In this document: positions 730-31,136 of the stretch, one piece after another
Numbering within the stretch: position 1 is the first letter of the stretch
Layout of the letters: each line of letters opens with the position of its first letter
DNA from: a cyanobacterium endosymbiont of Epithemia turgida isolate EtSB Lake Yunoko
Lineage (GTDB): Bacteria; Cyanobacteriota; Cyanobacteriia; Cyanobacteriales; Microcystaceae
Reading direction: 5' to 3'
NCBI RefSeq assembly: GCF_000829235.1
Contig: NZ_AP012549.1
Span: 2,280,001-2,312,000, forward strand
Length of the DNA stretch: 32,000 bases
Notes under the pieces: generated by a model
Database searches by the model: none
The model's input: the letters and a program-made list of their open reading frames with translations, nothing else
Told to the model about the DNA's origin: nothing
Translations under genes and position numbers: made by a program

Positions 730-773
730 ATTTTTTATGATGATTAAATTTAAATTTAATCATCATAAAAAAT
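730..773. repeat. 44-nt perfect palindrome with 22-nt arms and no spacer
   Basis: I checked every position from 730 to 773 pairwise and each pairs with its mirror partner (attttttatgatgattaaattt / aaatttaatcatcataaaaaat). It lies inside a 1.4 kb ORF-free AT-rich spacer with no adjacent gene. Confidence 0.9.
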
Positions 774-1145
774 AGCAATATTACCAATATTTTTCTCATA
801 ACTACTATGTCAATTTTATCCCAATAACAAATAAAAATAGCATTTAAAGTGTAAACAGAAACCCCGTAATAAACTTAATTTTTTTGTTTTAATTAAAGAA
901 TTATAGTTAACATAATAGCCATTAATATTATTTTACTTGTCTAAAACTTGGTCCTTATACCCCATCTATTTTATTAGAAAGTATTCAATTTAAATAAAAA
1001 ATTAATAATTGTAGTAATACTCATTTATCAAAAATAAATACCAATAGAAAAAACTGCTCACTATTATTATTTTAAGGGAATAAATTTCAGAATAGTCTTC
1101 AACTTAAAATAAAACTAAATTAAAGGAACTAAAACGGAAAATATT

Positions 1146-1187
1146 GCTCAAACTGCATTGAAACAAAAATCACTATGCAGTTTGAGC
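1146..1187. repeat. Inverted repeat with 13-bp perfect stem and 16-nt loop
   Basis: gctcaaactgcat (1146-1158) is the exact reverse complement of atgcagtttgagc (1175-1187). The stem is more GC-rich than the surrounding spacer. Confidence 0.8.
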
Positions 1188-1492
1188 TAAACTACTAATG
1201 ACTAAACAGTAGACCATCTTACACAGACTGGAATGTTTTCTATATGATGGATAAAACTTGATAGATAGCACAATCAATTCAACCTAGATAAATCAATCCC
1301 CCTATGAAAAACATATAACTCGAAGTATAAATCAAGACCTCTCAAAAAAAAGTGTGATAGATCTCCTTCATAGTCATATCATTAACCGAGGCAATATTTA
1401 CTATACAATAAGCACCAAAAACGACGATAACAGCAGTAATACTAACTCATTAACTGACTAAATCTTGATTAATTTTCCTGATTTATAAGTAT

Positions 1493-1732
1493 TTAGATCT
1501 TAGGATGGCTTCTTGCGTAATAATTCGATGCTACCACCTCAAGCACTTGCCCCGATTTAAATAAAGGAAAAATACAGTTAACTCGATTTTCCCAGACTCT
1601 ATGGGCAATTTCGTCATCAGGGCAACTAATGCGATACGTGTAATCAGAGATCACGGAAAAAAAACAGCCATAAGGGAGAACAAAAGACAGAAGCAACTCA
1701 AGAGTATTTTGATGTAACTGAGAATGGATCAT
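1493..1732 (-). CDS. Hypothetical small protein (79 aa), orphan ORF
   Basis: ATG-initiated ORF with more balanced composition than the flanking AT-rich DNA. I recognise no family and see no clear Shine-Dalgarno sequence. It may be real or a gene remnant. Confidence 0.35.
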   Translation of the reverse strand: MIHSQLHQNTLELLLSFVLPYGCFFSVISDYTYRISCPDDEIAHRVWENRVNCIFPLFKSGQVLEVVASNYYARSHPKI

Positions 1733-2242
1733 ATAACTTTATAGTTTATTTTCCTGTTTCTTCTAGACTGAGTATGAGCAATCAGTAGCCAGTCACTCCC
1801 AAAGCCATTATGCCAACTGCATTCTATGAGCCTAAAAATTTGATTTTTCCAACGACCAAGTTTTTAGAATTTTAGAAGTTTTGCCGAGTGAAAATTTTAG
1901 CTTTTGTTTGTTATAGCGTTGCCGCAGCTAGTCTGGAAGAGTTATTTTTTAGAACTCCTACTCAATTTTATCAGGTATGTCGTTCACTATTGTCTATCTT
2001 TTTATTGAGATATATTAACTTTTATGTAAGTTAGTTGTTGACAGATTGCGTAGGATATACATATCTAGAATAGATAAAGTGTGTGCTATAACCTCAAAAA
2101 GACTCAAAGTTCATTCCATCTAACTACTTTAGTGCCTGGTGGTAACATTCAATACCCCAATGAATCAAACGATATAGATACATTTATAAGTTTTAAATCA
2201 ACTAATATTATTTTTGTCAATTAAAACCTACTTGTATTTAAG

Positions 2243-2301
2243 TTTTTTATAAGATGAAAGATGAAATATGATTTATATTTCATCTTTCATCTTATAAAAA
2301 A
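2243..2301. repeat. Inverted repeat with 27-bp perfect stem and 5-nt loop, 86 nt downstream of the ruvA stop
   Basis: ttttttataagatgaaagatgaaatat (2243-2269) is the exact reverse complement of atatttcatctttcatcttataaaaaa (2275-2301). The arms contain an internal 7-nt tandem (atgaaag atgaaat). The T and A runs are inside the stem, so it is not a canonical intrinsic terminator. Confidence 0.9.
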
Positions 2302-2386
2302 TTCGGCATCCATCTCCTATTTTGACAAATATTTTATTTTTAGCAACTACTTAATATTTTAGACATTTCATCTTCAAGTCTAGCTA

Positions 2387-3034
2387 CTATGTAAGGTTTT
2401 CATTTTGATTTAACCAAATGATTGCTTCTTTAATCCAGTCCTCACCATTATGATTTTTTAAAATTTGATTATCTTTACTAAGAGTAGAAACAGCTTGATT
2501 AATTTCTTTATTGGTATAACCTAATGCTAACAAAGTTATTTCTAAATCTTCTAGCACCTCTAAAGATGGAATTGCGGCACTAGAAGATAAGGGTTTCCCT
2601 AATAGGTTTTTAAATTGAGAGAGTTTATTTTTGAATTCCAAGATAATACGTTCAGCAGTTTTTTGTCCTACTCCTGGTGTTTTGGATAGACTCCGAGTGT
2701 TACCATTAATAATTGCTTGCACTAATTTTTCTAATCCTAAGGTATCAATTAGAGCGATTGCTAATTGCGCACCAATTCCATTAACATTGATTAATTGACG
2801 AAATAAGTCTCGTTCATCCACAGTGGCAAAACCATATAAAATGGGGTAATCATCCCTAATTTGTAGACAGGTAAAAACTTGAATATTTTCTAGTTGGTTT
2901 TCAACTATTTTTTGGGAAAATCGTGATAAAATTTGGATTTCATAGCCCATGTTATTAACTTCCAATATCAGAATAGTCTTATTTTGGATATCATTGATCA
3001 CTTCAACCGGATTGCCTTTAAGAAAACTTAACAC
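2387..3034 (-). CDS. ruvA: Holliday junction branch migration complex subunit RuvA
   Basis: 215 aa with a GTG start. It has two helix-hairpin-helix motifs (VNGIGAQLAIALI, TPGVGQKTAERII) and the length and domain order typical of RuvA. Confidence 0.9.
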   Translation of the reverse strand: MLSFLKGNPVEVINDIQNKTILILEVNNMGYEIQILSRFSQKIVENQLENIQVFTCLQIRDDYPILYGFATVDERDLFRQLINVNGIGAQLAIALIDTLGLEKLVQAIINGNTRSLSKTPGVGQKTAERIILEFKNKLSQFKNLLGKPLSSSAAIPSLEVLEDLEITLLALGYTNKEINQAVSTLSKDNQILKNHNGEDWIKEAIIWLNQNENLT

Positions 3035-4624
3035 AGTTTATTATTAATGATTTAAGTCTTAATAAATTATTTTTTAATTTACTTTATCTATTTATTTTAA
3101 ATGTAAAACACTTAAAATAGTTTAAGTTTTATAAAAACTTGTTACATAACGAGCTTAAGTAAAATTATCATAAATAATTTAATTATTTTAATACCGTTCA
3201 TACAATTATATTTGTGCATTGCAAGAATAATCACACACTTTTTCTTTGAAAAGGTAATATTTGTCCTTAAATTGCTAACATAAGAGTTTATTTAGACTCA
3301 ATTCATAATCTATTACACAGATATCGAATTGCCAATCTCTTATCTCTATGAACTGGTAAAATAAAAAAGTATAAATAGAATTATAGATAATTTTAGTATA
3401 AATAATACTATTGTATTAATCTTAATTCAAGATAACATATTACTCCTGTTATAGCTGTTATAGTAAAAGAATAACTAATTTAGAAATGACTTTGTTCAGA
3501 TTCTAGTTGTAATAGTAAATTTTTAAAATAACTGGTAATCGCACAAACTTTGTTTTGGTTTCAATTTTGTTTTTGAAAATTTGCCTAGTAAATATCAACG
3601 TCCTCCTTAGAGAAAGCAAAATAGATTTGAGTTTCTATAGAAGCAATTAAAGTATCAAGCAATTATAGCGATTTTTTTGGAAATTATACTATAAATAAAG
3701 TGATTGCTATGTTGTATATAAAAATTTAGTCAGGTAGGCAATCTGATATTGATTGACATGTTTATTAAAAATGGTTAAAAAATTATTATTGTCTAGTAGA
3801 AAACAATCCAGCTAAGTCACAAACAAAGAAGCTAGACATATCAAATATTTATACATTTTATTATTTTTTTATGTATTTTATGATTATTAAGTTTTTAAAA
3901 TTACTTTACTTATAAAACCACAAAATTGCTTCTGAACAATTTGGTGACTATTAGTTTATGTATTCGAAATACATACCAATATGTGCCCTATTAGTATAGA
4001 TATATTTATAATAATAAGTAATATAAAAAATGTAGATATTGTTTCACCTATTGAATTGACTAAAATAAGAGAAACTTCTAAAAACTAGAAGAATTTGACC
4101 TATAACGGTATAATTTTTAGATTGTAATCTTGATCAAACAAGTATAATTACTAAATCATTCATTGCTAATACCTAGTATTAATTAGATAAATTGTTGACT
4201 ATATAAAACTACCTAATTTAACTTTATTTAAGTAATATATGACTATCTAATTGCTACTATTTACAATAGTATCTCAGTCACTAAAGCTTTATCTAGAAGT
4301 TATATCTTGACAAATTATTTTAAATATATATCGCCCAGGATAAATAAAGTGATCACTATTTATTGGACTAACTTAAAATTGACTTCAGATAAACGATATC
4401 GTTCAATCATAATATATTGACTTTTCTAAATAATTTCACTTCTAAATAAACAATATGTACATTTTTTTATTTCAATAGACTTTTAACTTTTTAAAAGCAT
4501 AATTTACTAGTCAAAACTTATAAATCTAATTTCAAGTTGTTTTTTTATTAAACTTTAATTCTTGGTCACGAAATAAGTTATTAAATATTAATAATTACAA
4601 ATTATATATTTCAATTTGACGACA

Positions 4625-4669
4625 AAATAGGTTAAAAGGCTAAATTATATTTAGCCTTTTAACCTATTT
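4625..4669. repeat. Inverted repeat with 21-bp perfect stem and 3-nt loop, 174 nt downstream of the larB stop
   Basis: aaataggttaaaaggctaaat (4625-4645) is the exact reverse complement of atttagccttttaacctattt (4649-4669), checked pairwise. Confidence 0.9.
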
Positions 4670-4842
4670 ATTAATAAACATTATGATAGCTATCTTCCAT
4701 CTTTGACAATCTCTTGTATATACATTAATTTTTACTTTTTATTCTTATCGATTCAATAAGTTTGAATTTTTAGATAGTCCATATTTGATATGTTTATCTA
4801 GGCAATCCGTGACTTATAGAATCTATATACTACACTAATTTT

Positions 4843-5616
4843 TTATTTGTCAATTAAACGATTAGCGGTTCGTAAAATTTGTCCAGCTAAAATAGCAGCC
4901 CCAAAGCCATTATCAATATTGACTACCCCAATCCCTGCCGCACAAGAATTAAGCATTGTCAATAATGAGGAAACCCCCCCAAAACTTACCCCATAACCCA
5001 CACTAGTTGGAACTCCAATTACTGGACAGTCAACCATTCCTGCTACCACACTAGGTAAGGCCCCTTCCATCCCTGCCACCACAATCAACACATCTGCTTG
5101 ATTGATCAACTCACGGTGACTTAATAGACGATGAATACCTGCTATTCCCACATCCCACAACCGTTGTACCTCAAACCCGCAAAGTTGTGCAGTAATGGCA
5201 GTTTCTTCAGCTACGGGTAAATCCGCTGTGCCTGCTGTAAGAATCCCAACTACTCCTAATCCAACCGAAGGGATTTCGGAGGTTTTTAAGGCACAAATAC
5301 GAGCCACTGGATAGTAAATTAAATTAGGCACTTGGTCTTCAAGTTGTTTGGCCACCGTTGCCTCAATACGAGTTGCCATAACCACAGGAGAATGACATGC
5401 CATCGTGAGCATAATTTGAGCAATTTGTTCAGGGGTTTTTCCTGTACCCCAAATAACTTCAGGAAATCCTGTTCTTAAATAACGATGATGATCAATTTTT
5501 GCAAACTCATCAACAGATTCAAAACTGAAATATTTGAGCTTTTCTAATCCTTGATCAGGACTAACTTCTCCTATGGCAATCGCTTGCAAAAGAGACCGAA
5601 GTGCATCTGGATTCAT
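4843..5616 (-). CDS. larB: PurE-like AIR carboxylase family protein, LarB-type (nickel-pincer nucleotide cofactor biosynthesis)
   Basis: 257 aa with an N-terminal helical extension followed by a PurE-like domain (GILTAGTADLPVAEE, VVAGMEGALPSVVAG, GVPTSVGYG). This architecture matches the LarB / NCAIR-mutase-related family as I recall it. Confidence 0.8.
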   Translation of the reverse strand: MNPDALRSLLQAIAIGEVSPDQGLEKLKYFSFESVDEFAKIDHHRYLRTGFPEVIWGTGKTPEQIAQIMLTMACHSPVVMATRIEATVAKQLEDQVPNLIYYPVARICALKTSEIPSVGLGVVGILTAGTADLPVAEETAITAQLCGFEVQRLWDVGIAGIHRLLSHRELINQADVLIVVAGMEGALPSVVAGMVDCPVIGVPTSVGYGVSFGGVSSLLTMLNSCAAGIGVVNIDNGFGAAILAGQILRTANRLIDK

Positions 5617-5804
5617 GGTCTTAAATTTACCTTTAATTATTAACTATTTCAACGATTGAATACGACTTATCGGCTAACCAATTTTATAGACTTTTTCTAC
5701 AATCACCTCCCTAGGTAAAAATTCCGTAAATAAGAGTCTATACTGTTATTTTGCTCAAATTTTAACACTAGAGAATCATTAGCATCAGTTAATTGAGGGC
5801 TAAA

Positions 5805-6375
5805 TTAATATTTAAGCAGTTCAGCAATGTAAAGTTCATTCAAAGGATGATTTTTCAGGCAACCTTTTTGATTAGCCACATTAAGAGCCTCTCCAGACTT
5901 CCCGACCTTAGTGTAACAGTAAGCCAATTCAGAATCACCAACTTTAATAGTTTCTGATTGAGAAAAAACAACAATATTCCTATATTCAGAAACATAGTTA
6001 GGGGGATTACTCACGAACAATACCTAAGCTGTAAAGTAGATTTCATCAATTCACCAAAAATAATAAATTTCTTAAATTGTTGATTAGTGCATTGGCGAAC
6101 CTAAAATTTGTCTCTTTAGTAGAGAGATCAACCCCAAAAATATTGACTGAGTAAATATAATATAGTCGAGGAAGCAATGCATTTAGCCCTTGACTGTGTT
6201 CCCATATACCATAAAAATATTCCATAAGTCCATCGATATTAAAATAAATTGATTTTACAGAAACATAATTGCCCGTAGAAGATTTTCTTTGTAAAGCTAT
6301 CCCATGTCTGAGAAAAATATCTATAGTATTCACAGCTAAACAACTAAGAAGCTTTATCAAGAGATAAAGCTTCAA
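5805..6375 (-). pseudogene. Possible decayed gene remnant: two adjacent same-strand ORF fragments of 109 aa and 71 aa
   Basis: ORFs 6046-6375 and 5805-6020 are co-directional and 25 nt apart, and both begin at TTG rather than ATG. Their composition is Ile/Leu/Asn/Tyr/Phe-rich, and I recognise no family. They could equally be chance ORFs in AT-rich DNA. Confidence 0.25.
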
Positions 6376-6595
6376 ATACTTCTAGCAGTTATTTTACTTA
6401 TGAAATACATCAAGTTTTAGTAGTAGTCAGAAGGTAAAAGTAATAAGTCAGAGTGCATCTCCTAAAACCAAGAAAAACTATGTATTCAGTTTCGACTCAG
6501 AAAAGATGATTGTTTTTAATTTTTAAATATCTAACTTAGAAATCTTTGAGATAATAGCTTATGCATAACTTACGATAATACGATAAAAGTTAAGG

Positions 6596-7993
6596 TTAAT
6601 TTGATAAATGTGGTAAGGCTTGCTGAATAAAGTTTTGGACCAGAGTAGTGCGTTTATTTTTTTCGAACACCTGTCTTATTTTTTGAGGAAATTGAGTTAA
6701 ATCTATTTCCTCTATTGCTGATAAATTAAGGTCTTGGTCTTGGAAATATTCCACTAAACTTAATCCAGCTAAACGAGTTAAATAGGCGGCACTTATTGCC
6801 TGAACTGTTCCACCAGCAATATAGGTAATAGCATTATTTTTGAGAAAACTGCCAATAGTTTGAGTTGATAGTTCAACTAATCCTAATTTGACTATTAATT
6901 TACCAATAGTTACTGAAAGAGCTTTTCCTTGAGAGAAAGACAATTTCTGTTTATAAATTACCCCTAAATCTATAACTAGTTGAGAACTAATAGCGACCAT
7001 AGCTAACAAATCTAAAGCAGCTACAGGATTAGCAAAAGCACCGGCTGCCGCAATCCATTGATATTTTTCAATAATAGGTAAAGCACAATCGTGTCTTATG
7101 CTATCAAGATTAGCTTTAGCCTGTTGTTTAAGAGATACTGCTTCACGCCATAGACTTCCCAAAACTAACATTTTCCTTTCGAGTTCTAAAACAAGGTTTA
7201 AGCGATCACTTAAGAGGTTAATATCAGGAGGTTGGGATTCAGTCCACTCCCGAATTGTCCCATTTTCTTCATGTTGGCGAACTTTCAGAGCTTGAGGAGC
7301 CGCACTAGTGGCAATAACATCGGAAGGGGCAATCATCGATTTTAGTTGTTGCCGTACTTGTTCTAGAATCAAGGCTCTTTCTTCTGGAATATACTGATCC
7401 TTTTTATTGAAAACCAAAATAAATCGTTGATGGTCTTGGTTACACTTTTGCAAAAATCTCCAATGAGAATTGGTTAAATCTCCGGTAATTAATAATAAAA
7501 TCAAGTCCGCCTTTATTTCAGGTATTTTTGTTTCTTTAAACACAGATTCTATCTCTATAAAAGAGAGCTCATTAGAGAGATATTGAGCTAATAATATTTT
7601 TTTTAAAGTTGTTTTTCCAACCTTTTTATCTCCTGCTAAGGCAATAGTTAGTTCTTGACGATCAAAGCCTAAAGATAATTGAGTTAATTGTTGCTTAAAG
7701 ACAGAAATATCACGATCTGGTTTTTCAGTGCCTAAGGTATTAAGGATTAGTTCTCCTTGAAGAATTACATCTCTGACCGATTGTTCAGTTAAACGTGTTA
7801 TTGACAATGGCTTATTTGTCGTTTCTTTTTGTTCTTGCCGCCACAAAAAAATTCCTAACCCCAAGGAGACTGCGCTGAGAAGTCCCCATTCTCCTACTTC
7901 TAGAATTTGCTGACTAAAACTAGTATAAAACCACAATATAAATGAAATACCGACACCTGCCACTAGAATTGGCTTATTAACTTTTTTTTTCAT
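6596..7993 (-). CDS. Membrane-associated P-loop GTPase with a C-terminal DUF697-like hydrophobic domain
   Basis: 465 aa. It has N-terminal hydrophobic helices, a Walker A / G1 motif (GDKKVGKTT), an NKxD G4 motif (NKKD), and a long C-terminal hydrophobic region (AAAGAFANPVAALDLLAMVAISSQLVIDLGVIY). The family assignment is from memory of DUF697 GTP-binding proteins. Confidence 0.75.
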   Translation of the reverse strand: MKKKVNKPILVAGVGISFILWFYTSFSQQILEVGEWGLLSAVSLGLGIFLWRQEQKETTNKPLSITRLTEQSVRDVILQGELILNTLGTEKPDRDISVFKQQLTQLSLGFDRQELTIALAGDKKVGKTTLKKILLAQYLSNELSFIEIESVFKETKIPEIKADLILLLITGDLTNSHWRFLQKCNQDHQRFILVFNKKDQYIPEERALILEQVRQQLKSMIAPSDVIATSAAPQALKVRQHEENGTIREWTESQPPDINLLSDRLNLVLELERKMLVLGSLWREAVSLKQQAKANLDSIRHDCALPIIEKYQWIAAAGAFANPVAALDLLAMVAISSQLVIDLGVIYKQKLSFSQGKALSVTIGKLIVKLGLVELSTQTIGSFLKNNAITYIAGGTVQAISAAYLTRLAGLSLVEYFQDQDLNLSAIEEIDLTQFPQKIRQVFEKNKRTTLVQNFIQQALPHLSN

Positions 7994-8014
7994 TTTTCGA
8001 TGTTTTTTACTTTT

Positions 8015-8512
8015 TTAAGATTGCCATGTCTTTTTTAACTTATCCCAAAGACCCGAAAGGGATTCTTTCATTTGTTTCTTAAGACTCCAACGTTGAAAAG
8101 CTTGTTCATAAGCTTCCCCCTCTGTTTGAAAGACTTTATAGGTATCTAGAGACAGAGACAATCCTAAGAGTAAGAAAGTATACAACGACCAAGATAAAGT
8201 CCCCGAACTAAAGAAATTTATCATAAAAAAAAATCCGTTGATAATAGCATAGCGAACAGCCTTTTGTTTCAATTGTTCCTGCCTATAATAATCAAATTCA
8301 TGCCGTTTACGTTCCATTTTTTTACTAGTAAGCCAATCGTGCTCAGCAGACCTAAGAGAGTCAGGATCAATGTCTAATTCAGTGGCAATTTCCCACAGTT
8401 GTGTTCTTGACAATTTTGAACCATCGGCTGTACGAGTTATCGCTAGATAAAGAATTTCTTGGACATCATTTTGACTGTAGAATTCAGGGGGTTGCAGGTT
8501 AGAAGTTGACAT
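8015..8512 (-). CDS. Small membrane protein, 2TM-domain-like, conserved hypothetical
   Basis: 165 aa with an ATG start. A soluble N-terminal half is followed by basic residues and two adjacent hydrophobic helices (AIINGFFFMINFF..., SLYTFLLLGLSLSL). It ends 21 nt upstream of the GTPase start on the same strand, so the pair is probably an operon. Confidence 0.65.
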   Translation of the reverse strand: MSTSNLQPPEFYSQNDVQEILYLAITRTADGSKLSRTQLWEIATELDIDPDSLRSAEHDWLTSKKMERKRHEFDYYRQEQLKQKAVRYAIINGFFFMINFFSSGTLSWSLYTFLLLGLSLSLDTYKVFQTEGEAYEQAFQRWSLKKQMKESLSGLWDKLKKTWQS

Positions 8513-8794
8513 AATTTACTTACTTTAAACTCAACTTAGTGAACCAGCTTGTCTGACTATGATTGTCGCCGGAAAATCAGCCAGGACAGACCTCTTTAGA
8601 TTCTATCTTGAATCTGAAAACAGGGAGCTACTAACTGTTGATAGTCTATTATCAAACAAAGGTTTTGATAAGCAATGAACAAATTTTATAGAAAAAATAG
8701 GGTTAATTTATGATTTTAATCCTAAACTGACTCTGTGTTGTACTATGCACCTACTTTTTGCATCTTAATCAAGAGTTAGAATTCTTGAATATTC

Positions 8795-8824
8795 GTTGCT
8801 CAGTAATTTTAATTACTGAGCAAC
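8795..8824. repeat. 30-nt near-perfect palindrome with 14-bp arms and a 2-nt centre
   Basis: gttgctcagtaatt (8795-8808) is the exact reverse complement of aattactgagcaac (8811-8824). It lies in the spacer between the 2TM gene and ppa. Confidence 0.85.
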
Positions 8825-9216
8825 TATAATGCTTGTTATGCTTAAAAAAATTATTTATTTTTCTAGCCTAACTGTGAAAAGTCGCAATAAAAAACCCTAA
8901 AAAGAAACTTTTTACAGGATTTTCATAATGCCAAACACTTAAATTGTATAAAAATCAAGTCTTTAGAATTACGAAATACTCCCGGAATAATAAGTTTGGA
9001 AGTCATTAGTTACTGGTATATTATTCTCAGTTCAGAAGGACCAAATTATTTTCTTGCATGTTCCATCTTCATTGTAGAATAGTGAGCTAGGGAACGCTTA
9101 ACCCGTCCCTTTTGGGGGGCTATATTGCTTAGTGGCAGGTGTGTTCAAGCTTTGAGAATACTTTCTTAGGGCTTTTAAGATGAATTGTAATTTTGTATAG
9201 CATTTGGAGAGAGTTA

Positions 9217-12695: not shown

Positions 12696-14294
12696 TTAAC
12701 GAGCAAGCCAAATAGCAGTACGATTAGTTTTGAACTCAACCGCAATAGGTTTAATCAATGATTGCCCTGTCATTTCTTTTGGCTGTGGTAATTGTAATAT
12801 TTCAAGTATAGTCGGGGCAACATCTGCGAGTCGTCCATTATCTCTGAGTTCAACAACTCCCCCATGGCCAAAAATTTTCCGCTTTTCTCCTTCAACTACA
12901 ATTAAGGGAACAGGATTTGTGGTGTGGGCAGTCCAGGGATTTCTTTGTTCATCACGCATTAATTCAGCGTTACCATGATCGGCAGTAATTAAGGCGGTTC
13001 CTCCCATTTTACTAATACTGCTTAATAACTGTCCTAAACAATTATCAACAGTTTCCACCCCTTCAATTGCTGCTTCTATGTTGCCTGTATGACCGAGCAT
13101 ATCAGGGTTGGCATAATTAATTACCACTAAAGTGTAAATCCCCTTTTCAATAGCAATACGGGCACGGTTCGTAACAGCCTCTGCCGACATGGCCGGAGAT
13201 TTATCGTAGGTGGCTACCATAGGACTTGGTATTAACTCTCGATCCTCTCCTTCAAAGGGATTTTCCGAGCCTCCATTGAAGAAATAGGTAACGTGGGGAT
13301 ATTTTTCAGTTTCCGCAATGCGAAATTGGTTTAATCCTTGACGGGCAACTATTTCCCCTAAAATATTATTGAGGTTTTGGGGGTCAAAAGCTACTTCAAC
13401 AGGGAGATTAGGATCATATTGAGTAAAGGTAACAAAACTCAGGGGACAAATTCGTTGCCGTTCAAATCCATCGAACTCAGCCAAGGTCAAAGCATAACAC
13501 ATTTGCCGTGATCGGTCGGGACGGAAGTTAAAAAAGATTATTCCATCTCCCGGTTCCACCGCGCCTGGGGCAATGCGGGTAGGAAGAATGAACTCGTCGG
13601 TGATATTTTTGCTATAGAAATCTTTAATCACATCGACAGTTGATCGGCTATCTCCTATGCCATCTAGAGTTATGATATCGTAGGCTTTTTTTACACGATC
13701 CCAACGGCGATCACGATCCATCGCATAGTAACGACCACTAAGAGTAACAATACGCCCCAATCCAATTTTCTTGATATAAGACTCAAGTTTTTGAATGACA
13801 TTTATCCCTTCAGTAGGGTAAGTATCCCGTCCATCAGTAATGGCGTGAATACACACTTGTTGAAGAGTTTGCTCCTTCGCTAAATCTAATAATCCCAACA
13901 GATGATCGAGATGAGAATGGACCCCTCCCTCGGAACATAAACCGATTAAATGTAGTTTTCCTTGACGAGAATGAACTTCTTGACAAATTTTTACTAACTG
14001 AGAATTTTTTAATAATGAGCCGTCTTTTACTGAATCGGAAATGCGAACTAATTCTTGAGGAACTATGCGACCAGCCCCAAGATTGAGATGTCCTACTTCT
14101 GAGTTACCCATCTGACCTTGGGGCAAACCGACATCTTTCCCAGAAGCTTGGATTAGAGTGCGAGGATAAGTAGTCCAAAGGCAGTCCATGACTGGAGTTT
14201 TTGCTAAAGCAATGGCGTTGTTTTCCATGAATGGGCGATAACCCCAGCCGTCTAAGACCACCAGTACCACTGGAGATACAGGTGCTTTTGCCAT
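12696..14294 (-). CDS. gpmI: 2,3-bisphosphoglycerate-independent phosphoglycerate mutase
   Basis: 532 aa with iPGM hallmarks (VVLDGWG, GNSEVGHLNLGAGR, ITDGRD, ADHGNAE). Confidence 0.95.
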   Translation of the reverse strand: MAKAPVSPVVLVVLDGWGYRPFMENNAIALAKTPVMDCLWTTYPRTLIQASGKDVGLPQGQMGNSEVGHLNLGAGRIVPQELVRISDSVKDGSLLKNSQLVKICQEVHSRQGKLHLIGLCSEGGVHSHLDHLLGLLDLAKEQTLQQVCIHAITDGRDTYPTEGINVIQKLESYIKKIGLGRIVTLSGRYYAMDRDRRWDRVKKAYDIITLDGIGDSRSTVDVIKDFYSKNITDEFILPTRIAPGAVEPGDGIIFFNFRPDRSRQMCYALTLAEFDGFERQRICPLSFVTFTQYDPNLPVEVAFDPQNLNNILGEIVARQGLNQFRIAETEKYPHVTYFFNGGSENPFEGEDRELIPSPMVATYDKSPAMSAEAVTNRARIAIEKGIYTLVVINYANPDMLGHTGNIEAAIEGVETVDNCLGQLLSSISKMGGTALITADHGNAELMRDEQRNPWTAHTTNPVPLIVVEGEKRKIFGHGGVVELRDNGRLADVAPTILEILQLPQPKEMTGQSLIKPIAVEFKTNRTAIWLAR

Positions 14295-16548: not shown

Positions 16549-16990
16549 TAATTTAGATAATTAAAGTAATAACGGCATCAATCTAAATCCTTGAATTGAC
16601 TATTAGGCTTTTAGGTAAAGCAGTTCTTGACGAGAGATTAGTACTATATAATCAATTAAAGTAAATGAGCTTAACTAAGTATTTTCTAGAAAAATAGTTA
16701 ATTAGAGAGAATAATAACGATGGCAAGATGCCATACTTAGTAACAATTACACTAATAAATTAGGAGAGCAAACACGATTAAAGTTTAATTTACCCTCAAA
16801 AATATACTACAAAATGAAAATAAAGAACAGGAATGTTATCTTTAAATATAAAGACATAAAGCTTTCAAAAAGTCTAGATTGGATAAATCTATCAGAAAAT
16901 ACAATTAAAAAATAATTTTGAGATAAATTTTTTAAGAAAAAATATTTTAAAAGTCTCCTAAATATTTACTAGTAAACAGTTATTGAGCTT

Positions 16991-18337: not shown

Positions 18338-18403
18338 GAACTGTAGGATAGGCAATCGCTGCCCTATAATCAACTCTGAGCATATCCACTGCCACAAATA
18401 CAA

Positions 18404-18427
18404 ACCTAACCAAGATTTTGGTTGGGT
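18404..18427. terminator. Hairpin between convergent aroA and rpmA, a candidate bidirectional terminator
   Basis: acctaaccaa (18404-18413) pairs with ttggttgggt (18418-18427) around a 4-nt loop, with one T-G wobble position. It is flanked by moderately T-rich sequence and sits 67 nt after the aroA stop and 39 nt after the rpmA stop. Confidence 0.45.
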
Positions 18428-18465
18428 CTGTATTTACTGAGACTATTGTTTTAGCCTGTAGAGGC

Positions 18466-19349: not shown

Positions 19350-19662
19350 TCTCATACAATGAAAAGAATAACTAATAATGATTAATTAAAATCCTTATAA
19401 TTCATTAAGATTAATATAAGTTCTTTCTACTTTTTTGTCAGTTAACTATTTTTTCTACTCTTGATAGATTTTGACTCTTCATATAAACTCAGGAAATTAT
19501 GTATGTAGCTAACTGTTTTTTAAGTAAATATTCGTAGCTAATACCTAGAATAACTTGGTTAGATTAAAACTACTAAAAATACTTATAAAACCTCCCAAGG
19601 AATTCATTTAAATTGATATAATTCAGTCTGGATTGACAGGAAATTATTACGCATTGAAGAAT

Positions 19663-19723
19663 AAAAAAATCAACATTATTAGTCTTTACTGAATATAGAA
19701 AGACTAATAATGTTGATTTTTTT
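19663..19723. repeat. Inverted repeat with 25-bp perfect stem and 11-nt loop, shaped like a bidirectional terminator (A7 - stem - T7)
   Basis: aaaaaaatcaacattattagtcttt (19663-19687) is the exact reverse complement of aaagactaataatgttgattttttt (19699-19723), checked pairwise. It sits in the middle of a 1 kb ORF-free spacer between ndk and rplU. Confidence 0.9.
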
Positions 19724-20153
19724 GTCTACTAAGAAATTTGGTAATTTAGATTCATTAATAAAAATAGACCTTTCACATTGTTTAAATTTTTGCTGTTAAA
19801 ACTTTTAAATATTATCGAATATAACTTATAGGATCAAATAATAAGCTATTCGATATACTTTTTTAAAAAAAGAAATGCCGCTCCAATTCTTATTAAGTTT
19901 AAATTGAAAAAATTAGAATATATAATTATTTTTGTACATTCTATTAGTAATAATAGCATTAGTCTGCGCAGTTAATAACTTTTAAAAACATTTATGAAAC
20001 TATCATTTTGTTATTGTATAGTGATTGTAAAAGTTACTTTAGAATTTATGAGATTTTTCTTTACCCTAATTCTGAACATGGTTTTTTGAAATATCAACAG
20101 TAATGCCATTATTAAGACCTAATGAAATAAGATTCATTCTCAAAGATACAATT

Positions 20154-20195
20154 TCGCTTACACGAAAGGATTTGCTTCTCCTTTCGTGTAAGCGA
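20154..20195. terminator. Hairpin with 17-bp perfect GC-containing stem and 8-nt loop, 46 nt downstream of the ndk stop
   Basis: tcgcttacacgaaagga (20154-20170) is the exact reverse complement of tcctttcgtgtaagcga (20179-20195). A T-run (tttta) follows on the plus strand only. On the ndk-sense strand the trailing sequence is aaattgtatcttt. Confidence 0.55.
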
Positions 20196-21433: not shown

Positions 21434-21742
21434 TTTATAAAACTCTATCTAGTCATAAAATCTATTTTTAATAAATAAAAAAATAAATATTAAATATTAA
21501 AAATAACTCAATAAATATTAGATTTTTTTATATAAAAGTTATAATAGCAGAGTCAAGAACTATCTATTTAAATTCAGGTTATATTTGCTTTTAATTGACA
21601 CTAATATTTTCAGCAAATCATACACAATTGATAAAATATCCTACATTTAGGTTCTACTGTTATTGGCTTCAATCTGTTTCTCAATAAGAGTGATATGATT
21701 AACAATTACTTTGTAATCACCTTCTCCAATAGCTGGGACGTC

Positions 21743-21768
21743 ATTAATCCTATTGATTAATCCTATCC
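21743..21768. repeat. Tandem duplication of a 13-bp unit (11 of 13 identical) inside a relic ORF
   Basis: attaatcctat occurs at 21743-21753 and again at 21756-21766, a period of 13. It lies within a start-less 40-codon minus-strand ORF fragment (21647-21769). Confidence 0.8.
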
Positions 21769-22039
21769 CTCAATCGTTAGCTATAAGTTTTTTAGCAATG
21801 ATATGATACATAAAAAATTTGTTTTAGTAATTATTCATGTTCAGAGTGAAGTAATTTACTATCAATAGTTTTTTATAGTAAATACCAAAAAATTGATCTT
21901 TTAGGGCAAAAATAGTATTATGTTTAATTTTTAAAGGCTTACTGTTAAATTTAGTGATTTATTATATCAATAATGCTATTTTTGCTGTTGCTTATATCAT
22001 CTCTAGCAAAGACTATTTTAAATTAAAAATAAAACTATT

Positions 22040-22081
22040 TAGCAATTTAATTAGCTAAAACTTTAGCTAATTAAATTGCTA
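22040..22081. repeat. 42-nt near-perfect palindrome with 20-bp arms and a 2-nt centre
   Basis: tagcaatttaattagctaaa (22040-22059) is the exact reverse complement of tttagctaattaaattgcta (22062-22081). Confidence 0.9.
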
Positions 22082-22412
22082 TCAATACCTAATTACCTAT
22101 TTAAAACTATCAAGATTAAATATTGTTATTAACAGACAAAATAAGTTAAGTTTAAAAACTTAAATTAAAAGAAAATTATTTTTATATAAAACCATTATTG
22201 CTATGATTATTTACTTATTTTTTGATAAATTTTTGAGCATGTTGAAGTTAATCACATTAACACATCTAAACTATTTGTAATTTTGAATCTTTTTTTATAT
22301 CATTTTGTAGTTTAACTTTATTCAAATATTTGAAAACTATATATTAAAAAATATTTTTTTAAATAATTAAAAGTTATATTTACACTATTTATTAGTAGTA
22401 AATTAAAAAGTG

Positions 22413-22462
22413 TATTTAGTCAAATATCTAACCTATAAATAGGTTAGATATTTGACTAAATA
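22413..22462. repeat. 50-nt near-perfect palindrome with 24-bp arms and a 2-nt centre
   Basis: tatttagtcaaatatctaacctat (22413-22436) is the exact reverse complement of ataggttagatatttgactaaata (22439-22462). Confidence 0.9.
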
Positions 22463-22657
22463 GGAGATAAAAAACTTAATAATTTAAGTTTAAAATATAT
22501 TTTTTATTCCACAGATAAAACTAGCTTATATTGGTAAATATTTATGATTATCTTTACTATTTTTACAATTTATGTAAAAATTAAATATTATGATAACAAT
22601 ATTATTTTTTACAATTTGAATAAAAAGCTAATTGTATATTTTATTTAAATTAATTAA

Positions 22658-22705
22658 TTTATACTCATTTAGTAGTTTGTAACAAAATTAATAAATGAGT
22701 ATAAA
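22658..22705. repeat. Inverted repeat with 14-bp perfect stem and 20-nt loop
   Basis: tttatactcattta (22658-22671) is the exact reverse complement of taaatgagtataaa (22692-22705). Confidence 0.8.
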
Positions 22706-23095
22706 AATAAGAAAAAATTAAATAAATGTCTTGATCACTATTCTTTACATAAATTTTAAATATTTGGCTACCGATTACACTAAAATAAATTTGTTTAGCA
22801 GGTAAACTAGCAATATTTTAAATAGGAGTTAAAGACTGGTAAGAATAAGTCACTTATTAAATAATTTATGGAGTCTCAGGAGTATGATTAGCAGCTATTA
22901 TTATTTTCTACTTTTTTAGTTTAAATATATGAAGTAAAATATTCCAAACTGATTTTATCTTTAGAAAAAATTGTTTTTATAAAAAAGTTAGATTAAATAT
23001 CGAGGTTATTATATTTTGAGGAATAAAATCTAATTTTAGATAATTTTTACTAAAAAACTTATGATAACAATTTTTGTGATGATTAAACCTATGAC

Positions 23096-23134
23096 AATAC
23101 AAAGGTTTCTCTCTTTGGGAAAAACCTTTGTATT
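23096..23134. repeat. Inverted repeat with 13-bp perfect stem and 13-nt loop
   Basis: aatacaaaggttt (23096-23108) is the exact reverse complement of aaacctttgtatt (23122-23134). Confidence 0.8.
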
Positions 23135-23333
23135 TGGAGACAGACAGCAGTCACAAATTAAGTGGAGATTAAAATACATTGGAATCGTTTCTTCTTCTCA
23201 CTAATAGTTTAAGTTGTTGCCTTTTTACACTAAGTATTAACGGTGTATTCAATCCCAGGCAACATCTTTTATTATATTTCTTTTTAACAGTTTTATGTTA
23301 CCTCATGATTATTATTGGCAATTTCAAAGTGAT

Positions 23334-23376
23334 AACTAATTAACACGTCTTCTGTTATAAGACGTGTTAATTAGTT
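23334..23376. repeat. Inverted repeat with 18-bp perfect stem and 7-nt loop
   Basis: aactaattaacacgtctt (23334-23351) is the exact reverse complement of aagacgtgttaattagtt (23359-23376). Confidence 0.9.
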
Positions 23377-23803
23377 CCTATGTATAAATAGTCAACAAAA
23401 ATAAATAATTTAAATTTTGTGGGTTAGCTTATGGTTAAAGTAAGCCATTTTTCTTAATAAATCTTTAATTCCCTACATTGTTTAAAAACAAAATCGTTAT
23501 TTCAATTATTTTGTTCAGCTTAATTTTATAAATTAAACTGAAATTAGTAGGATAGATTAAACATCTCTAGATTAGAAAATACAGACTAAAGACTTGTTAA
23601 TTATAATTGAATAAATTATATCAGCTTGCTATAGATAGACCTGCAGCGCTTTTCTAAAAGAGTAGATGAAACAATCGTAGTATGTTACGACTAACAATGT
23701 AGTCGCTATTGAATTTGAATCTTTTAGAGTTTAAGAAATGACCGTTTATATCTAGTACCACTCAAGGGGAAAACTCAGAATTTAAAATGGTTCTGTCCTG
23801 ACT

Positions 23804-23845
23804 TGAATCCTAGATTAAGCTCCCAAGAGCTTAATCTAGGATTCA
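23804..23845. repeat. Inverted repeat with 19-bp perfect stem and 4-nt loop, about 285 nt upstream of groES
   Basis: tgaatcctagattaagctc (23804-23822) is the exact reverse complement of gagcttaatctaggattca (23827-23845). It is followed on the plus strand by ctgtgtttgagc. Confidence 0.9.
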
Positions 23846-23986
23846 CTGTGTTTGAGCAAATTTATATTTAAAATAGTAACAATAAAAAATTTTTAGCTAA
23901 AAATGACAATATATACGAATAACTTAGCTCCCCACAATGTTTATCACGACAATACACGATAGTTAATTAAGCATCTTTTTGTACCA

Positions 23987-24002
23987 GTTCGGGAACCCGT
24001 AC
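23987..24002 (+). promoter_or_regulatory. K-box-like element upstream of the groESL promoter
   Basis: GTTCGG-GAAC-CCGTAC fits the cyanobacterial groE K-box consensus GTTCGG-NNAN-CCNNAC as I recall it from the Kojima and Nakamoto work. It lies 12 nt upstream of the putative -35. Confidence 0.6.
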
Positions 24003-24013
24003 ACAACCACCTG

Positions 24014-24043
24014 TTGCCACGTTCACCTATATTTCGCTAGATT
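24014..24043 (+). promoter_or_regulatory. Candidate groESL promoter
   Basis: TTGCCA (24014-19), an 18-nt spacer, then TAGATT (24038-43). The -10 abuts or overlaps the left arm of CIRCE, as is typical for HrcA-controlled promoters. Confidence 0.4.
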
Positions 24044-24068
24044 AGCACTCATGAGGTGAGAGTGCTAA
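24042..24068 (+). promoter_or_regulatory. CIRCE operator (HrcA binding site)
   Basis: TTAGCACTC-N9-GAGTGCTAA is a perfect match to the CIRCE consensus. It ends 62 nt upstream of the groES ATG. Confidence 0.95.
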
Positions 24069-24129
24069 TTTTTGACACACATCACCTTCTAAGATTTAAC
24101 CTTGAATCAACATCCTAGAGGATTTATAC

Positions 24130-24441
24130 ATGGCAGCAATCAGTATCAACGTTTCAACCGTTAAACCCCTTGGTGATCGCGTGTTTGTCAAGGTCAGTGC
24201 ATCTGAGGAAAAGACAGCCGGAGGCATCTTACTTCCCGAAACCGCTAAAGAGAAGCCCCAAATTGGTGAAATCGTCGCCGTTGGACCTGGTAAACGTAAT
24301 GATGATGGTAGCCGTTCTGAAATTGAAGTCAAAGTAGGCGACCAGGTTCTTTACTCCAAATATGCTGGAACTGACATTAAACTCGGTGGCAAAGATTATG
24401 TCTTGTTATCTGAGAAGGATATCTTAGCAGCAGTTGCCTAA
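24130..24441 (+). CDS. groES: Co-chaperonin GroES
   Basis: 103 aa with [12 protein letters not shown], the mobile loop [11 protein letters not shown], and [10 protein letters not shown]. Confidence 0.97.
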
Positions 24442-26242: not shown

Positions 26243-26270
26243 GGGTGGGTGTTTCCCACCTTTCTTATTT
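26243..26270 (+). terminator. Rho-independent terminator of groESL
   Basis: Stem ggtggg (26244-49) pairs with cccacc (26255-60) around a 5-nt loop, with a possible extra G-T pair, and is followed by tttcttattt. It starts 28 nt after the groEL stop. Confidence 0.7.
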
Positions 26271-27262
26271 ATACTCACCTACTTGTTGAGCTGTTGTAAA
26301 TTTGGAGACTTTAATAAAGATTCTATCCCAAGTTTTAATTGACGTACCTCTATCCTTAGAGATTCTGTCATATCCTAACTGACTTTTCTAATCTAATAAA
26401 CATAAGTTCAACAAAACTTAAAAACATGGTTGTCATTCTTAAATATTTAAGTCAGAATTAAAAGAGATTAACGATTATCTAAAATAGTAACTATGAACAA
26501 TTGGGAGTTTAATAATTGGCTATTTTAAAACCACTAGAAGACGAGATAGATATACTTCCCTAATTTCCCATAAAAACTCAGTGTGCCACATTGTGAGTAT
26601 GATGACAGACTTCTATCGGAGTGGAGTTATCAAACTAATTCTTATAATTTATACCTTACAGGTCTGTAAAAAACAATATATTAACATCATTACCGAGAGC
26701 ATAAGCTCCACAAAACGATTATATTTCACTAGAGTAGGAAGTTTTTTTTTATAATAAGGAAGGACTTATGACTTATTTGATTATTTAGATGTATTTAATT
26801 ATTGAAGAGTTCAATATTATAACCCATAAAAAGTGATTACGGGAGTCATCGCTCCACCTGTTATAAAACACAAATGATATCCTTTTTTTGAATAAATACT
26901 ATAAGTTGATGAGAAGCAGAATAACAATATTTTCAAATCTCTGGTAGAAGTGATTTAGGTTAGATGATACTTCAGTCAGATCAAGATGGGATTTCGTATC
27001 CATAGTACCAGAAATTTATAAAATAAGGCTTCTAGTATAAAACTGCTACTTTCCTTTATCTCCACTTTTTTTGCACTAACGTCAATAGAGTCTCTCACTT
27101 AAATTTATTTTTATAACGTCATAATTTTCTGGTTATTTTTATTAGTAGTAAAATTATCAAAGCGAAATAAAATAATAAATAATATGAATATGTAAAACTA
27201 TAGAATAGTTTTCACTTTCTCTTCTGTTAAGGAAAATACTTATAGACACAAAGCAAAAACTA

Positions 27263-30229: not shown

Positions 30230-30263
30230 TTATGTAATAAAATTACATAATTTTATTACATAA
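30230..30263. repeat. 34-nt near-perfect palindrome with 16-bp arms and a 2-nt centre, between the epimerase gene and coaX
   Basis: ttatgtaataaaatta (30230-30245) is the exact reverse complement of taattttattacataa (30248-30263). It is almost pure A/T. Confidence 0.85.
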
Positions 30264-30341: not shown

Positions 30342-31136
30342 ATGAATATTAACATTTCAAATTTATCCCCATATTTTGCTCTAATTGTAGGGAATTCACG
30401 TCTCCATTGGGGGTATTTTAAAACAGATAAACTACAAATAACTTGGGATACTCCTCATTTATCTAAACCTATTACAACCAACAAATTACCTAAACATTTA
30501 TTACTTCCCCAATTACCAGATGATTTACCCGTTTATTTTGCTTCTGTAGTTTTTTCCCAAACCCAATTATGGGAAACTTATCCAAAGATCAAAATTATTA
30601 CCCAAGTACATATACCTCTACAAAAACTTTATCCGACTCTAGGAATTGATCGTGCTTTAGCGGTCTTGGGTGCTGGGAAAACTTATGGGTTTCCTTGCCT
30701 GGTAATTGATGTAGGAACAGCCTTAACTTTTACAGGAGTTGATGGCGATCAGGCTTTAGTTGGAGGAGCAATTTTACCGGGATTAAGGTTACAGTTTAAG
30801 TCCCTAGCTAATAATACAGCTGCTTTATCTGAAGAAGTATTGCCGATGAGTTTACCTATTCTTTGGGGAACAACGACTTCTGAGGCGATTCAAAGTGGCA
30901 TTGTCCACGCTATTTTAGCAGGAATTAAAACATTTATTAAAGATTGGTTAGAAAAATTTTCCGACAGTCAAGTGATTATAACAGGGGGAGATTCGCAACA
31001 AGTCATAACTTATCTAAAAGATAATAATTATGATTTTTTAGATAAGTTAAAACAAGATAGCAATCTTGTTTTTTGGGGAACTAGAGAAGTATTTTCCTTA
31101 TGTATAATTAATAATGGTACAAAAATTAAAGCCTGA
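30342..31136 (+). CDS. coaX: Type III pantothenate kinase
   Basis: 264 aa with VGNSRLHWGYF near the N-terminus, IDVGTALTF, and ITGGD. These are the ASKHA-fold phosphate and adenosine motifs typical of CoaX. Confidence 0.85.
   Translation: MNINISNLSPYFALIVGNSRLHWGYFKTDKLQITWDTPHLSKPITTNKLPKHLLLPQLPDDLPVYFASVVFSQTQLWETYPKIKIITQVHIPLQKLYPTLGIDRALAVLGAGKTYGFPCLVIDVGTALTFTGVDGDQALVGGAILPGLRLQFKSLANNTAALSEEVLPMSLPILWGTTTSEAIQSGIVHAILAGIKTFIKDWLEKFSDSQVIITGGDSQQVITYLKDNNYDFLDKLKQDSNLVFWGTREVFSLCIINNGTKIKA

Follow-up and report, generated by a model that had tools for sequence, protein, structure and literature searches.

Perfect hairpins in the non-coding DNA of the Epithemia turgida spheroid body as probable products of recurrent template switching at inverted repeats

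A stretch of 32,000 nucleotides (nt) from the genome of the spheroid body (diazoplast) of Epithemia turgida (EtSB; genome 2,794,318 bp; contig NZ_AP012549.1, positions 2,280,001 to 2,312,000; proteins BAP18306-BAP18325), hereafter the window, carries a population of long, mismatch-free hairpins. Comparison with related endosymbiont genomes leads us to conclude that these hairpins, each of unique sequence, have very probably been produced by repeated short-range template switching at inverted repeats. What the alignments described below show directly is how the sequences have mutated, in several cases also in which direction, and that the hairpins behave as mutational hotspots. From the same comparisons we infer that the switching was replicative rather than a matter of recombination or gene conversion between the arms, and that most of the hairpins are selectively neutral. 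A first-pass annotation of this DNA had listed the templated correction of quasi-palindromes among its possible explanations, and this option is now strongly supported by the rewriting of single arms and the extension of stems and, further, by compensatory double changes and exact loop inversions in relatives.

In the process we envisage, a growing strand that reaches a short or imperfect inverted repeat during DNA synthesis would come off its template and anneal to the partner arm, which may lie on the same nascent strand or on the opposite one; there it would copy a stretch of between a few bases and a few tens of bases before going back. A single switch could make one arm the exact reverse complement of the other, extend the stem outward into its flanks or convert a one-sided point mutation into a compensatory pair, and a switch that crosses the loop would invert the loop. 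Longer stems would favour further switching, so that hairpins would stay mismatch-free while turning over faster than their neutral surroundings, and loss would occur mainly through deletion. About half of the window is non-coding (~47% lies outside long open reading frames, ORFs) and such events would be tolerated there, so that hairpins would accumulate in this fraction. The starting points may have been functional short hairpins (the 3' hairpin of ndk, the aroA/rpmA terminator, the CIRCE operator) or chance complementarity. Arm rewriting, extension, compensatory change and loop inversion have all been described as footprints of template switching (PMC8794818, PMC5453318, PMC8604942, PMC5941160).

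The window was compared with the sister genome of the E. adnata endosymbiont (EadnSB; CP076462; loci L168, L170 and L172), which is 95-98.5% identical to it, with the metagenome strains L001 and L166 (~94-96% identical and, by distance, outside the EtSB-EadnSB pair) and L002 (EadnSB-like), and with the more distant spheroid bodies (SBs) of R. gibba (L005) and R. gibberula (L004), which are ~86-89% identical. Free-living Crocosphaera/Cyanothece-type relatives (L006-L013, L165) served as a further comparison. Orthologous hairpins are carried by the EadnSB genome and by other metagenome contigs, and positions 744-9034 of the window are matched at 100% identity by a Logan contig (L167). Since the hairpins recur in other assemblies and species, and do so with evolutionary changes, we reject an assembly artefact. 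The same Logan contig (36 kb, SRR29904087) stops at position 744, within the zero-loop 22-bp palindrome at 730-773, which suggests that perfect palindromes break short-read assemblies.

At seven loci the differences between relatives are clustered in one arm or its flank and make that side the exact reverse complement of a conserved partner arm. Named by their first position in the window (Table 1), these are 19663, 730, 22658 and 23334, together with position 14196 and the CIRCE hairpin of the R. gibba SB locus (L005), and 23514 as found in EadnSB and L002. At 19663 the right-arm core AAGACTAATAAT is kept in both L004 and L005, and the EtSB left arm is its exact reverse complement; in the two distant genomes the position of the left arm is taken by an unrelated sequence common to both, with which only 9/25 (L004) and 8/25 (L005) positions pair. 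In EadnSB, the left arm of 730 is kept with one difference next to a right arm that is non-complementary and 6 nt shorter, and the right arm of 22658 is kept, again with one difference, next to a left arm that differs at no fewer than seven positions. Hairpin 23334 differs from L001 at six left-arm positions and one right-arm position and has one mismatch in EadnSB, and 1146 has a single one-sided mismatch in the same genome. The stem at 2243 is perfect only in the window: the left arm in EadnSB is without 7 nt (AAGATGA) that are present, in complementary form, in the right arm, and the polarity of this change is ambiguous because the 7 nt form a tandem repeat.

Several other stems can be followed through partially paired states. 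At 22040, 13/20 positions pair in L004; at 22413 only 5/24 do, and the EadnSB stem is 22 bp with one loop-proximal change. Pairing at 30230 climbs stepwise from 8/16 in L005 through 10/16 in L004 and 13/16 in EadnSB to 16/16 in the window. The stem at 31006, which lies inside coaX, is identical in EadnSB and pairs at 13/14 positions in L005 and 11/14 in L004. Set against its counterpart in the spheroid body RgSB (TYIKDDNDDFLDDL), this coaX repeat (TYLKDNNYDFLDKL, 31006-31049) has been perfected by changes that alter amino acids as well, and templated mutation may thus be reshaping the C-terminus of the protein.

The same kind of change is found in other lineages. The R. gibba SB has a private 24-bp stem at L005 14196, the counterpart of which in EtSB, EadnSB, L001 and L004 is a sequence shared among these four with an inner hairpin of 8 bp only. 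The CIRCE stem, 9-12 bp long in all other genomes, is a perfect 21 bp in the R. gibba SB (L005 11293-11343), where the right flank has been rewritten and the operator now lies inside the perfect stem; this extension could change HrcA binding or groESL expression. The counterpart of the imperfect quasi-palindrome 18398 is a perfect 18-bp palindrome in the R. gibba SB (L005 7534-7569) and pairs at 10/18 positions in L004. At 23514, finally, the 13-bp stem has been lengthened to a perfect 19 bp in EadnSB and L002 by a 5-nt insertion and about three left-flank substitutions (six differing alignment columns), and the short form is kept in the window and in the outgroup L001, with the centre inverted between these two. 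Perfect hairpins private to EtSB, to EadnSB and to the R. gibba SB thus each exist, so that no placement of the root makes all of them ancestral and several must be gains. The first-pass annotation had proposed that sister spacers be aligned to see how the arms evolve; in these alignments arms are rewritten from their partner, or compensated, while the stems stay perfect.

Gain of this kind also bears on a related explanation, in which homologous recombination or gene conversion between the arms homogenises the arms and flips the loops, as has been proposed for hairpin inversions in chloroplasts. Acting on hairpins that already exist, such exchange would likewise flip the loops back and forth and make the arms evolve in concert; the window has a gene for RuvA, and RecG, RecJ, RecO and RecR are retained in these endosymbionts. 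It cannot, however, build an arm where the sequence is not complementary or lengthen a stem into an unrelated flank, as has happened at 19663, at L005 14196, in the CIRCE hairpin of L005 and at 23514 in EadnSB, and for RecA-dependent exchange 8-20 bp is a short arm length. We therefore regard recombination between arms as a very unlikely source of the population.

A second line of evidence for template switching comes from stems in which Watson-Crick pairing has been kept through multi-base compensatory changes, some of them without a wobble intermediate. Hairpin 4625 is perfect over 21 bp in both the window and EadnSB despite two compensatory pairs (A:T to C:G and G:C to A:T), and its loop is inverted between the two (TAT in the window, ATA in EadnSB). 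At 23804 the window has a G:C pair and the loop CCAA where EadnSB, L001 and L002 have T:A and TTGG, and the L005 hairpin, perfect over 18 bp, has undergone three more compensatory changes, one of them a paired deletion of 1 nt; altogether 23804 is perfect in four of the five alignable spheroid-body sequences, L002 having one mismatch. Three states are found at 8795: the window has C:G and the loop TT, L166 has A:T and the loop AA, and EadnSB preserves a mismatch intermediate (C/T). The compensatory changes, which occur at 23804, 8795 and 4625, are mostly transversions and hence do not pass through a wobble intermediate, and in L005 there is a paired indel. At 4625, 8795 and 23804 compensatory pairs and loop flips occur together, which a loop-crossing switch, copying the arm and inverting the loop at once, would explain.

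Loop inversion occurs on a wider scale. The hairpin at 20154 is kept in all four spheroid-body genomes, with a compensatory T:A to C:G change in L004, and its window loop TTTGCTTC is the exact reverse complement of GAAGCAAA, the loop of EadnSB, L004 and L005; since these three carry the other orientation, the flip is derived in EtSB. The window-specific changes at 23804 and 20154 can likewise be called derived because EadnSB, L001/L002 and L004/L005 share the other state. At 6348 the loop reads AAGA in the window and TCTT in L166, again an exact reverse complement, and at 27194 AGA in the window and TCT in EadnSB. In EadnSB, 22040 has an inverted centre and shifted stem boundaries, and the 13-nt loop of 23096 is the reverse complement of the window loop plus one difference, on a stem with two mismatches. 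Counted together, inversions between relatives are exact at 4625, 6348, 8795, 20154, 23804 and 27194 and near-exact, with one extra change, at 22040, 23096 and 23514. An unbiased scan of mutation clusters between EtSB and EadnSB returned exact inversions at 4646-4648, 20171-20178, 23823-23826 and 27202-27204, all four flanked by perfect inverted repeats of 8-21 bp. By a hand tally from the alignments, loop orientation differs between EtSB and EadnSB at about 7/14 comparable hairpins, which is close to the expectation for randomised orientation.

Hairpins also change faster than the DNA around them. Divergence from EadnSB is 0.87% in coding DNA, 4.0% in other non-coding DNA and 14.3% in hairpin spans (Fisher p = 4e-21), a 3.6-fold excess over the surrounding non-coding DNA in which the hairpin value is an upper estimate, inflated because the hairpins were ascertained as perfect in the EtSB window and because changes are clustered. 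Even so, simple sequence conservation of the hairpins is excluded. Turnover extends to loss: a 250-bp segment (19646-19894) that holds the 25-bp hairpin 19663 is present in L004 and L005 and absent in EadnSB, a deletion adjoining a long hairpin and an instance of hairpins being lost by deletion.

These rates bear on a second alternative, that selection, with ordinary compensatory evolution, keeps the hairpins perfect because they work at the RNA level, as intrinsic terminators, as stabilisers of 3' ends or as sites of small-RNA processing. Some placements suit it: 2243, 4625, 20154 and 30230 sit 46-174 nt after stop codons, 18398 lies between convergent genes, 20154 and 23804 remain hairpins in genomes ~13% diverged, and a terminator scan picks out 18398, 20154, 22040, 22413 and 23804. 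But the stems are strictly Watson-Crick, with zero G·T pairs although RNA tolerates them; the compensatory pairs, mostly transversions, have arisen within 2-5% divergence; exact loop inversion has no rationale at the RNA level; density peaks in the gene-free spacer between an esterase gene and groES (hereafter the desert), where Rfam finds no match; hairpins outpace their non-coding neighbours; and many are lineage-private gains from non-hairpin sequence. The T tract of 20154 is on the strand opposite ndk, the ndk strand having none, and the clear groEL terminator at 26243 is of another type, with a short GC-rich stem unlike the long hairpins. Selection for RNA function is therefore an improbable explanation for the population. 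For the same reasons (rapid evolution, lineage-specific gain, a density peak where there are no genes) the suggestion of the first-pass annotation that these are terminators of unannotated or vanished genes does not account for it, although a minority does fit a functional element: 20154, 18398 and CIRCE probably started as such, with template switching acting on them too, and 23804, which is conserved, is perhaps also functional in origin. The quasi-palindrome 18398, between aroA and rpmA, is probably a bidirectional terminator.

Several points weigh against template switching as the general account. The persistence of 20154 and 23804 across ~13% divergence and the presence of four hairpins within 200 nt of a stop codon make selection on a subset possible. 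Comparisons at 730, 22658, 2243 and 4625 involve one sister genome each and are unpolarised, the analysis covers 32 kb of a single genome, and replicative switching and recombination or gene conversion between arms are not told apart by these comparisons. A generic cluster scan under strict criteria recovered only a handful of events; it demanded that an entire cluster and its flanks equal a nearby reverse-complement copy, which we judged too strict.

The excess of hairpins is not a product of base composition. An exact scan of the window for perfect inverted repeats found all 14 perfect hairpins of the first-pass annotation, with the positions and stem lengths it had given, plus two more, 31006 (14 bp, in coaX) and 6348 (11 bp). 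Long perfect stems are thus real, but those of at least 20 bp number six, not the seven that had been counted. The window has 15 stems of at least 12 bp, against a mean of 0.13 in 60 shuffles that preserve dinucleotide content in 500-nt blocks, and 10 stems of at least 16 bp, against none. When the desert alone was shuffled 400 times, its six stems of at least 13 bp compared with a mean of 0.035 and its four of at least 18 bp with none. Chance origin in AT-rich DNA is thereby ruled out, as the first-pass annotation had estimated. DNA folding gives the hairpins energies between -16.5 and -24.6 kcal/mol (z-scores -8 to -11); a count of stems tolerating G·T pairs carries no information without a null model of its own.

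Nor do the hairpins resemble a repeat family. The longest substring common to any two of them is an 8-mer, and a search of the 32-kb window for second copies of arm 12-mers returned none, save one match of a 22413 arm at position 10098 that on inspection looks like chance. Since no two share more than an 8-mer, we do not consider them a family, in agreement with the earlier judgement that they are neither REP nor MITE copies nor a CRISPR array; no REP/MITE consensus emerges among them in this window-wide search, and a CRISPR array is ruled out by unrelated sequences and irregular spacing where identical, regular direct repeats would be expected. It could still be supposed that a mobile or dispersed palindromic family (REP, MITE or RPE-like) has its other members outside the window: the hairpins are intergenic and, at 30-60 nt, of REP/MITE-like size, and the copy search covered 32 kb of the genome. 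Yet in true families, exemplified by the control loci L044 and L045 of unrelated cyanobacteria, hairpins share 13-14-mers with each other, and here sister genomes have the hairpins at orthologous sites, where they arise when sequence already present is locally rewritten and not through insertion. We find a dispersed family scarcely credible.

Expressed as stems of at least 12 bp per kb outside long ORFs, hairpin density is 0.93 in EtSB, 0.94 in the R. gibba SB, 0.68 in EadnSB, 0.44 in RgSB and 0.13 in L164, another spheroid body; free-living relatives have 0.23, and 70 other cyanobacterial loci, terminators and repeat families included, 0.35. Of stems of at least 16 bp the window has 10, and 162 kb of DNA from free-living relatives has none. 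From these densities and long-stem counts it follows that the excess has two sources: per base of non-coding DNA the rate is higher or the hairpins persist longer, and non-coding DNA that tolerates them is abundant.

RecQ helicases unwind such structures, and the loss of recQ together with rnhB is a candidate cause of a raised template-switch rate. All Rhopalodian endosymbionts lack rnhB (RNase HII), recQ, phrB and radC and retain recJ, recG, mutS, mutL and polA (PMC12903740 supplement), and in yeast, quasi-palindrome mutations that lengthen the identity between arms become more frequent when RNase H2 is lost (PMC3820800). Both rnhB and recQ are also missing from UCYN-A. A further point to be set against our reading is that density is uneven among spheroid bodies that share these repair-gene losses, RgSB and L164 being the low cases, and this difference between lineages makes recQ and rnhB a weak cause. 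The first-pass annotation had linked tolerance of the hairpins to loss of SbcCD, but SbcCD makes palindromes toxic only at lengths far above the 13-27 bp of these stems, and its loss is needless for tolerance; sbcC and sbcD are not listed in the supplement tables searched. On the most far-reaching view, template switching would be a dominant and abnormally frequent mutational force in diazoplast non-coding DNA, with loops near flip-flop equilibrium and maybe polymorphic within cells, driven by the loss of RecQ and RNase HII and creating or remodelling regulatory hairpins (terminators, the CIRCE operator) and even coding sequence (coaX) during organelle formation; we offer this view tentatively and think it rather doubtful as a whole.

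Table 1. Hairpins and associated elements of the window (positions are those of the 32,000-nt stretch)
Feature	Position	Strand	Stem or pairing	Loop	Context
Perfect palindrome	730..773	.	22 bp	0	
Perfect hairpin	1146..1187	.	13 bp	16 nt	
Perfect hairpin	2243..2301	.	27 bp	5 nt	ruvA stop codon 86 nt upstream
Perfect hairpin	4625..4669	.	21 bp	3 nt	larB stop codon 174 nt upstream
Perfect hairpin	6348..6373	.	11 bp	4 nt	within decayed signal-peptidase gene remnant
Perfect hairpin	8795..8824	.	14 bp	2 nt	between divergent genes
Imperfect quasi-palindrome	18398..18436	.	15/18 positions pair		between convergent aroA and rpmA
Perfect hairpin	19663..19723	.	25 bp	11 nt	
Perfect hairpin	20154..20195	.	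17 bp	8 nt	ndk stop codon 46 nt upstream
Gene-free spacer (desert)	21434..24129	.			esterase gene to groES; six perfect hairpins, one imperfect hairpin and CIRCE
Perfect hairpin	22040..22081	.	20 bp	2 nt	
Perfect hairpin	22413..22462	.	24 bp	2 nt	
Perfect hairpin	22658..22705	.	14 bp; extended form 21 nt at 90%	20 nt	
Perfect hairpin	23096..23134	.	13 bp	13 nt	
Perfect hairpin	23334..23376	.	18 bp	7 nt	
Imperfect hairpin	23514..23542	.	12/13 positions pair		
Perfect hairpin	23804..23845	.	19 bp	4 nt	~285 nt upstream of groES
CIRCE operator	24042..24068	.	TTAGCACTC-N9-GAGTGCTAA		upstream of groES; read from sequence
Short hairpin	27194..27212	.	8 bp	3 nt	from unbiased inversion scan
Perfect hairpin	30230..30263	.	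16 bp	2 nt	preceding gene ends 99 nt upstream
Perfect stem	31006..31049	+	14 bp	16 nt	within coaX coding sequence

The desert contains no ORF longer than 54 amino acids (aa), and its counterpart in EadnSB has no called genes. Known RNAs and tRNAs are ruled out as the source of its hairpins, Rfam and ARAGORN giving no matches there, and none of these hairpins has an upstream gene within 600 nt. The idea that the desert consists of pseudogene remnants was rejected when tblastx against the free-living relatives, in which groES is not adjacent to the esterase gene, gave no match; a metagenome scan using the esterase did not return close relatives. At its groES end the CIRCE operator matches the consensus TTAGCACTC-N9-GAGTGCTAA exactly, with the groES start codon 62 nt downstream. 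The ~270 bp upstream of groES (window 23860-24130) are ~90% identical to L004, far above the rest of the spacer, which is consistent with a conserved promoter and 5' leader. A ~120-bp segment (118-124 bp depending on the comparator) is missing from EtSB at window position 23707 and present in EadnSB, L001, L002 and L005 (L001 486-609, L002 301-424, L170 16497-16614), a small lineage-specific deletion in the spacer upstream of groES.

Other observations concern gene content elsewhere in the window. About 3.9 kb between the aspartate kinase gene and aroA (L170 6051-9968) is missing in EtSB at 16958/16959 and carried by EadnSB, L004 and L005; in EadnSB it includes an intact gene for a CitMHS/TrkA_C transporter of 599 aa as well as two perfect hairpins private to that genome, and its absence is a recent, EtSB-specific gene loss. 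Between larB and a DUF697 gene, 5617-6400 is ~77% identical to the S26 signal-peptidase gene of the free-living relative L165 (8917-9966), and a second segment, 6213-6362, aligns with the same gene at 69%; this region has no intact ORF and is thus a pseudogene remnant, and a 109-aa ORF with a TTG start at 6046-6375 is probably spurious. The HIP1 octamer GCGATCGC has just two copies in the 32 kb (15742 and 18230), both in coding DNA.

As a rule, template-switch mutation has to be deduced from reporter genes or from events that are rare even in large data sets. A single pair of sister endosymbionts provides dozens of events in a few tens of kb (stems created or extended, compensatory pairs, flips), which makes spheroid-body genomes a natural system in which to measure the rate and spectrum of template switching and offers a connection with recQ and rnhB loss that can be tested. 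Two consequences follow for the reading of these genomes. First, multi-nucleotide differences and apparent compensatory evolution need not mean selection. Second, new hairpins, and with them potential terminators or altered operators, can arise in one step early in organelle evolution. Papers on spheroid-body genomes, as far as they could be searched, make no mention of hairpins, palindromes or inverted repeats; the mechanism is already known, and its density and prominence in a diazoplast genome appear to be undescribed.

Among known hairpin-forming elements, Rho-independent terminators and the CIRCE/HrcA operator are matched by 20154, 18398 and CIRCE, which are conserved and stand at the expected sites, but most of the hairpins differ from terminators in being AT-rich, overlong, without a T tract on the relevant strand or far from genes. 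REP, MITE and RPE repeats are likewise intergenic hairpin DNA of similar size, yet the hairpins described here have no consensus and no copies and arise in place from orthologous sequence. A closer likeness is with chloroplasts, in the non-coding DNA of which Kelchner and Wendel reportedly described, in 1996, minute inversions associated with hairpins. There too an organelle-like genome has spacer hairpins, often 3' of genes, with both loop orientations found among relatives (this flip-flop is discussed in PMC12928735), but ours is a cyanobacterial endosymbiont of ~2.8 Mb in which stems are created de novo besides being flipped.

Template switching at inverted repeats in yeast (PMC8604942, PMC13100816) shares with the present case the homogenisation of arms, the inversion of spacers and the expansion of repeats, and includes protein-binding sites, to which the CIRCE extension in the R. 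gibba SB may be compared; it differs in concerning a eukaryotic nuclear genome and coding and promoter contexts. In bacteria, perfect short inverted repeats also exceed the null expectation, an excess attributed to template-switch correction (Lavi et al. 2018, PMC5941160), but those of E. coli are reported to be conserved, whereas the hairpins here outpace their flanks and many are private to one lineage. The nearest parallel is quasi-palindrome template-switch mutation as treated by Ripley, in the four-point model of Löytynoja and Goldman (PMC5453318), by Mönttinen and Löytynoja (2022, PMC8794818) and with the E. coli reporters of the Lovett laboratory (PMC7202029). In those systems, as here, perfect stems are made or repaired in one multi-nucleotide event, and multi-base compensatory change, stem extension and loop inversion, alone or together with compensatory change, are found. 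The published cases concern RNA genes, human and yeast genomes and reporter loci, whereas the present one lies in the non-coding DNA of a young endosymbiont and differs in its high density, in stems of up to 27 bp and in having about half of its loops flipped between genomes that are 95-98.5% identical.

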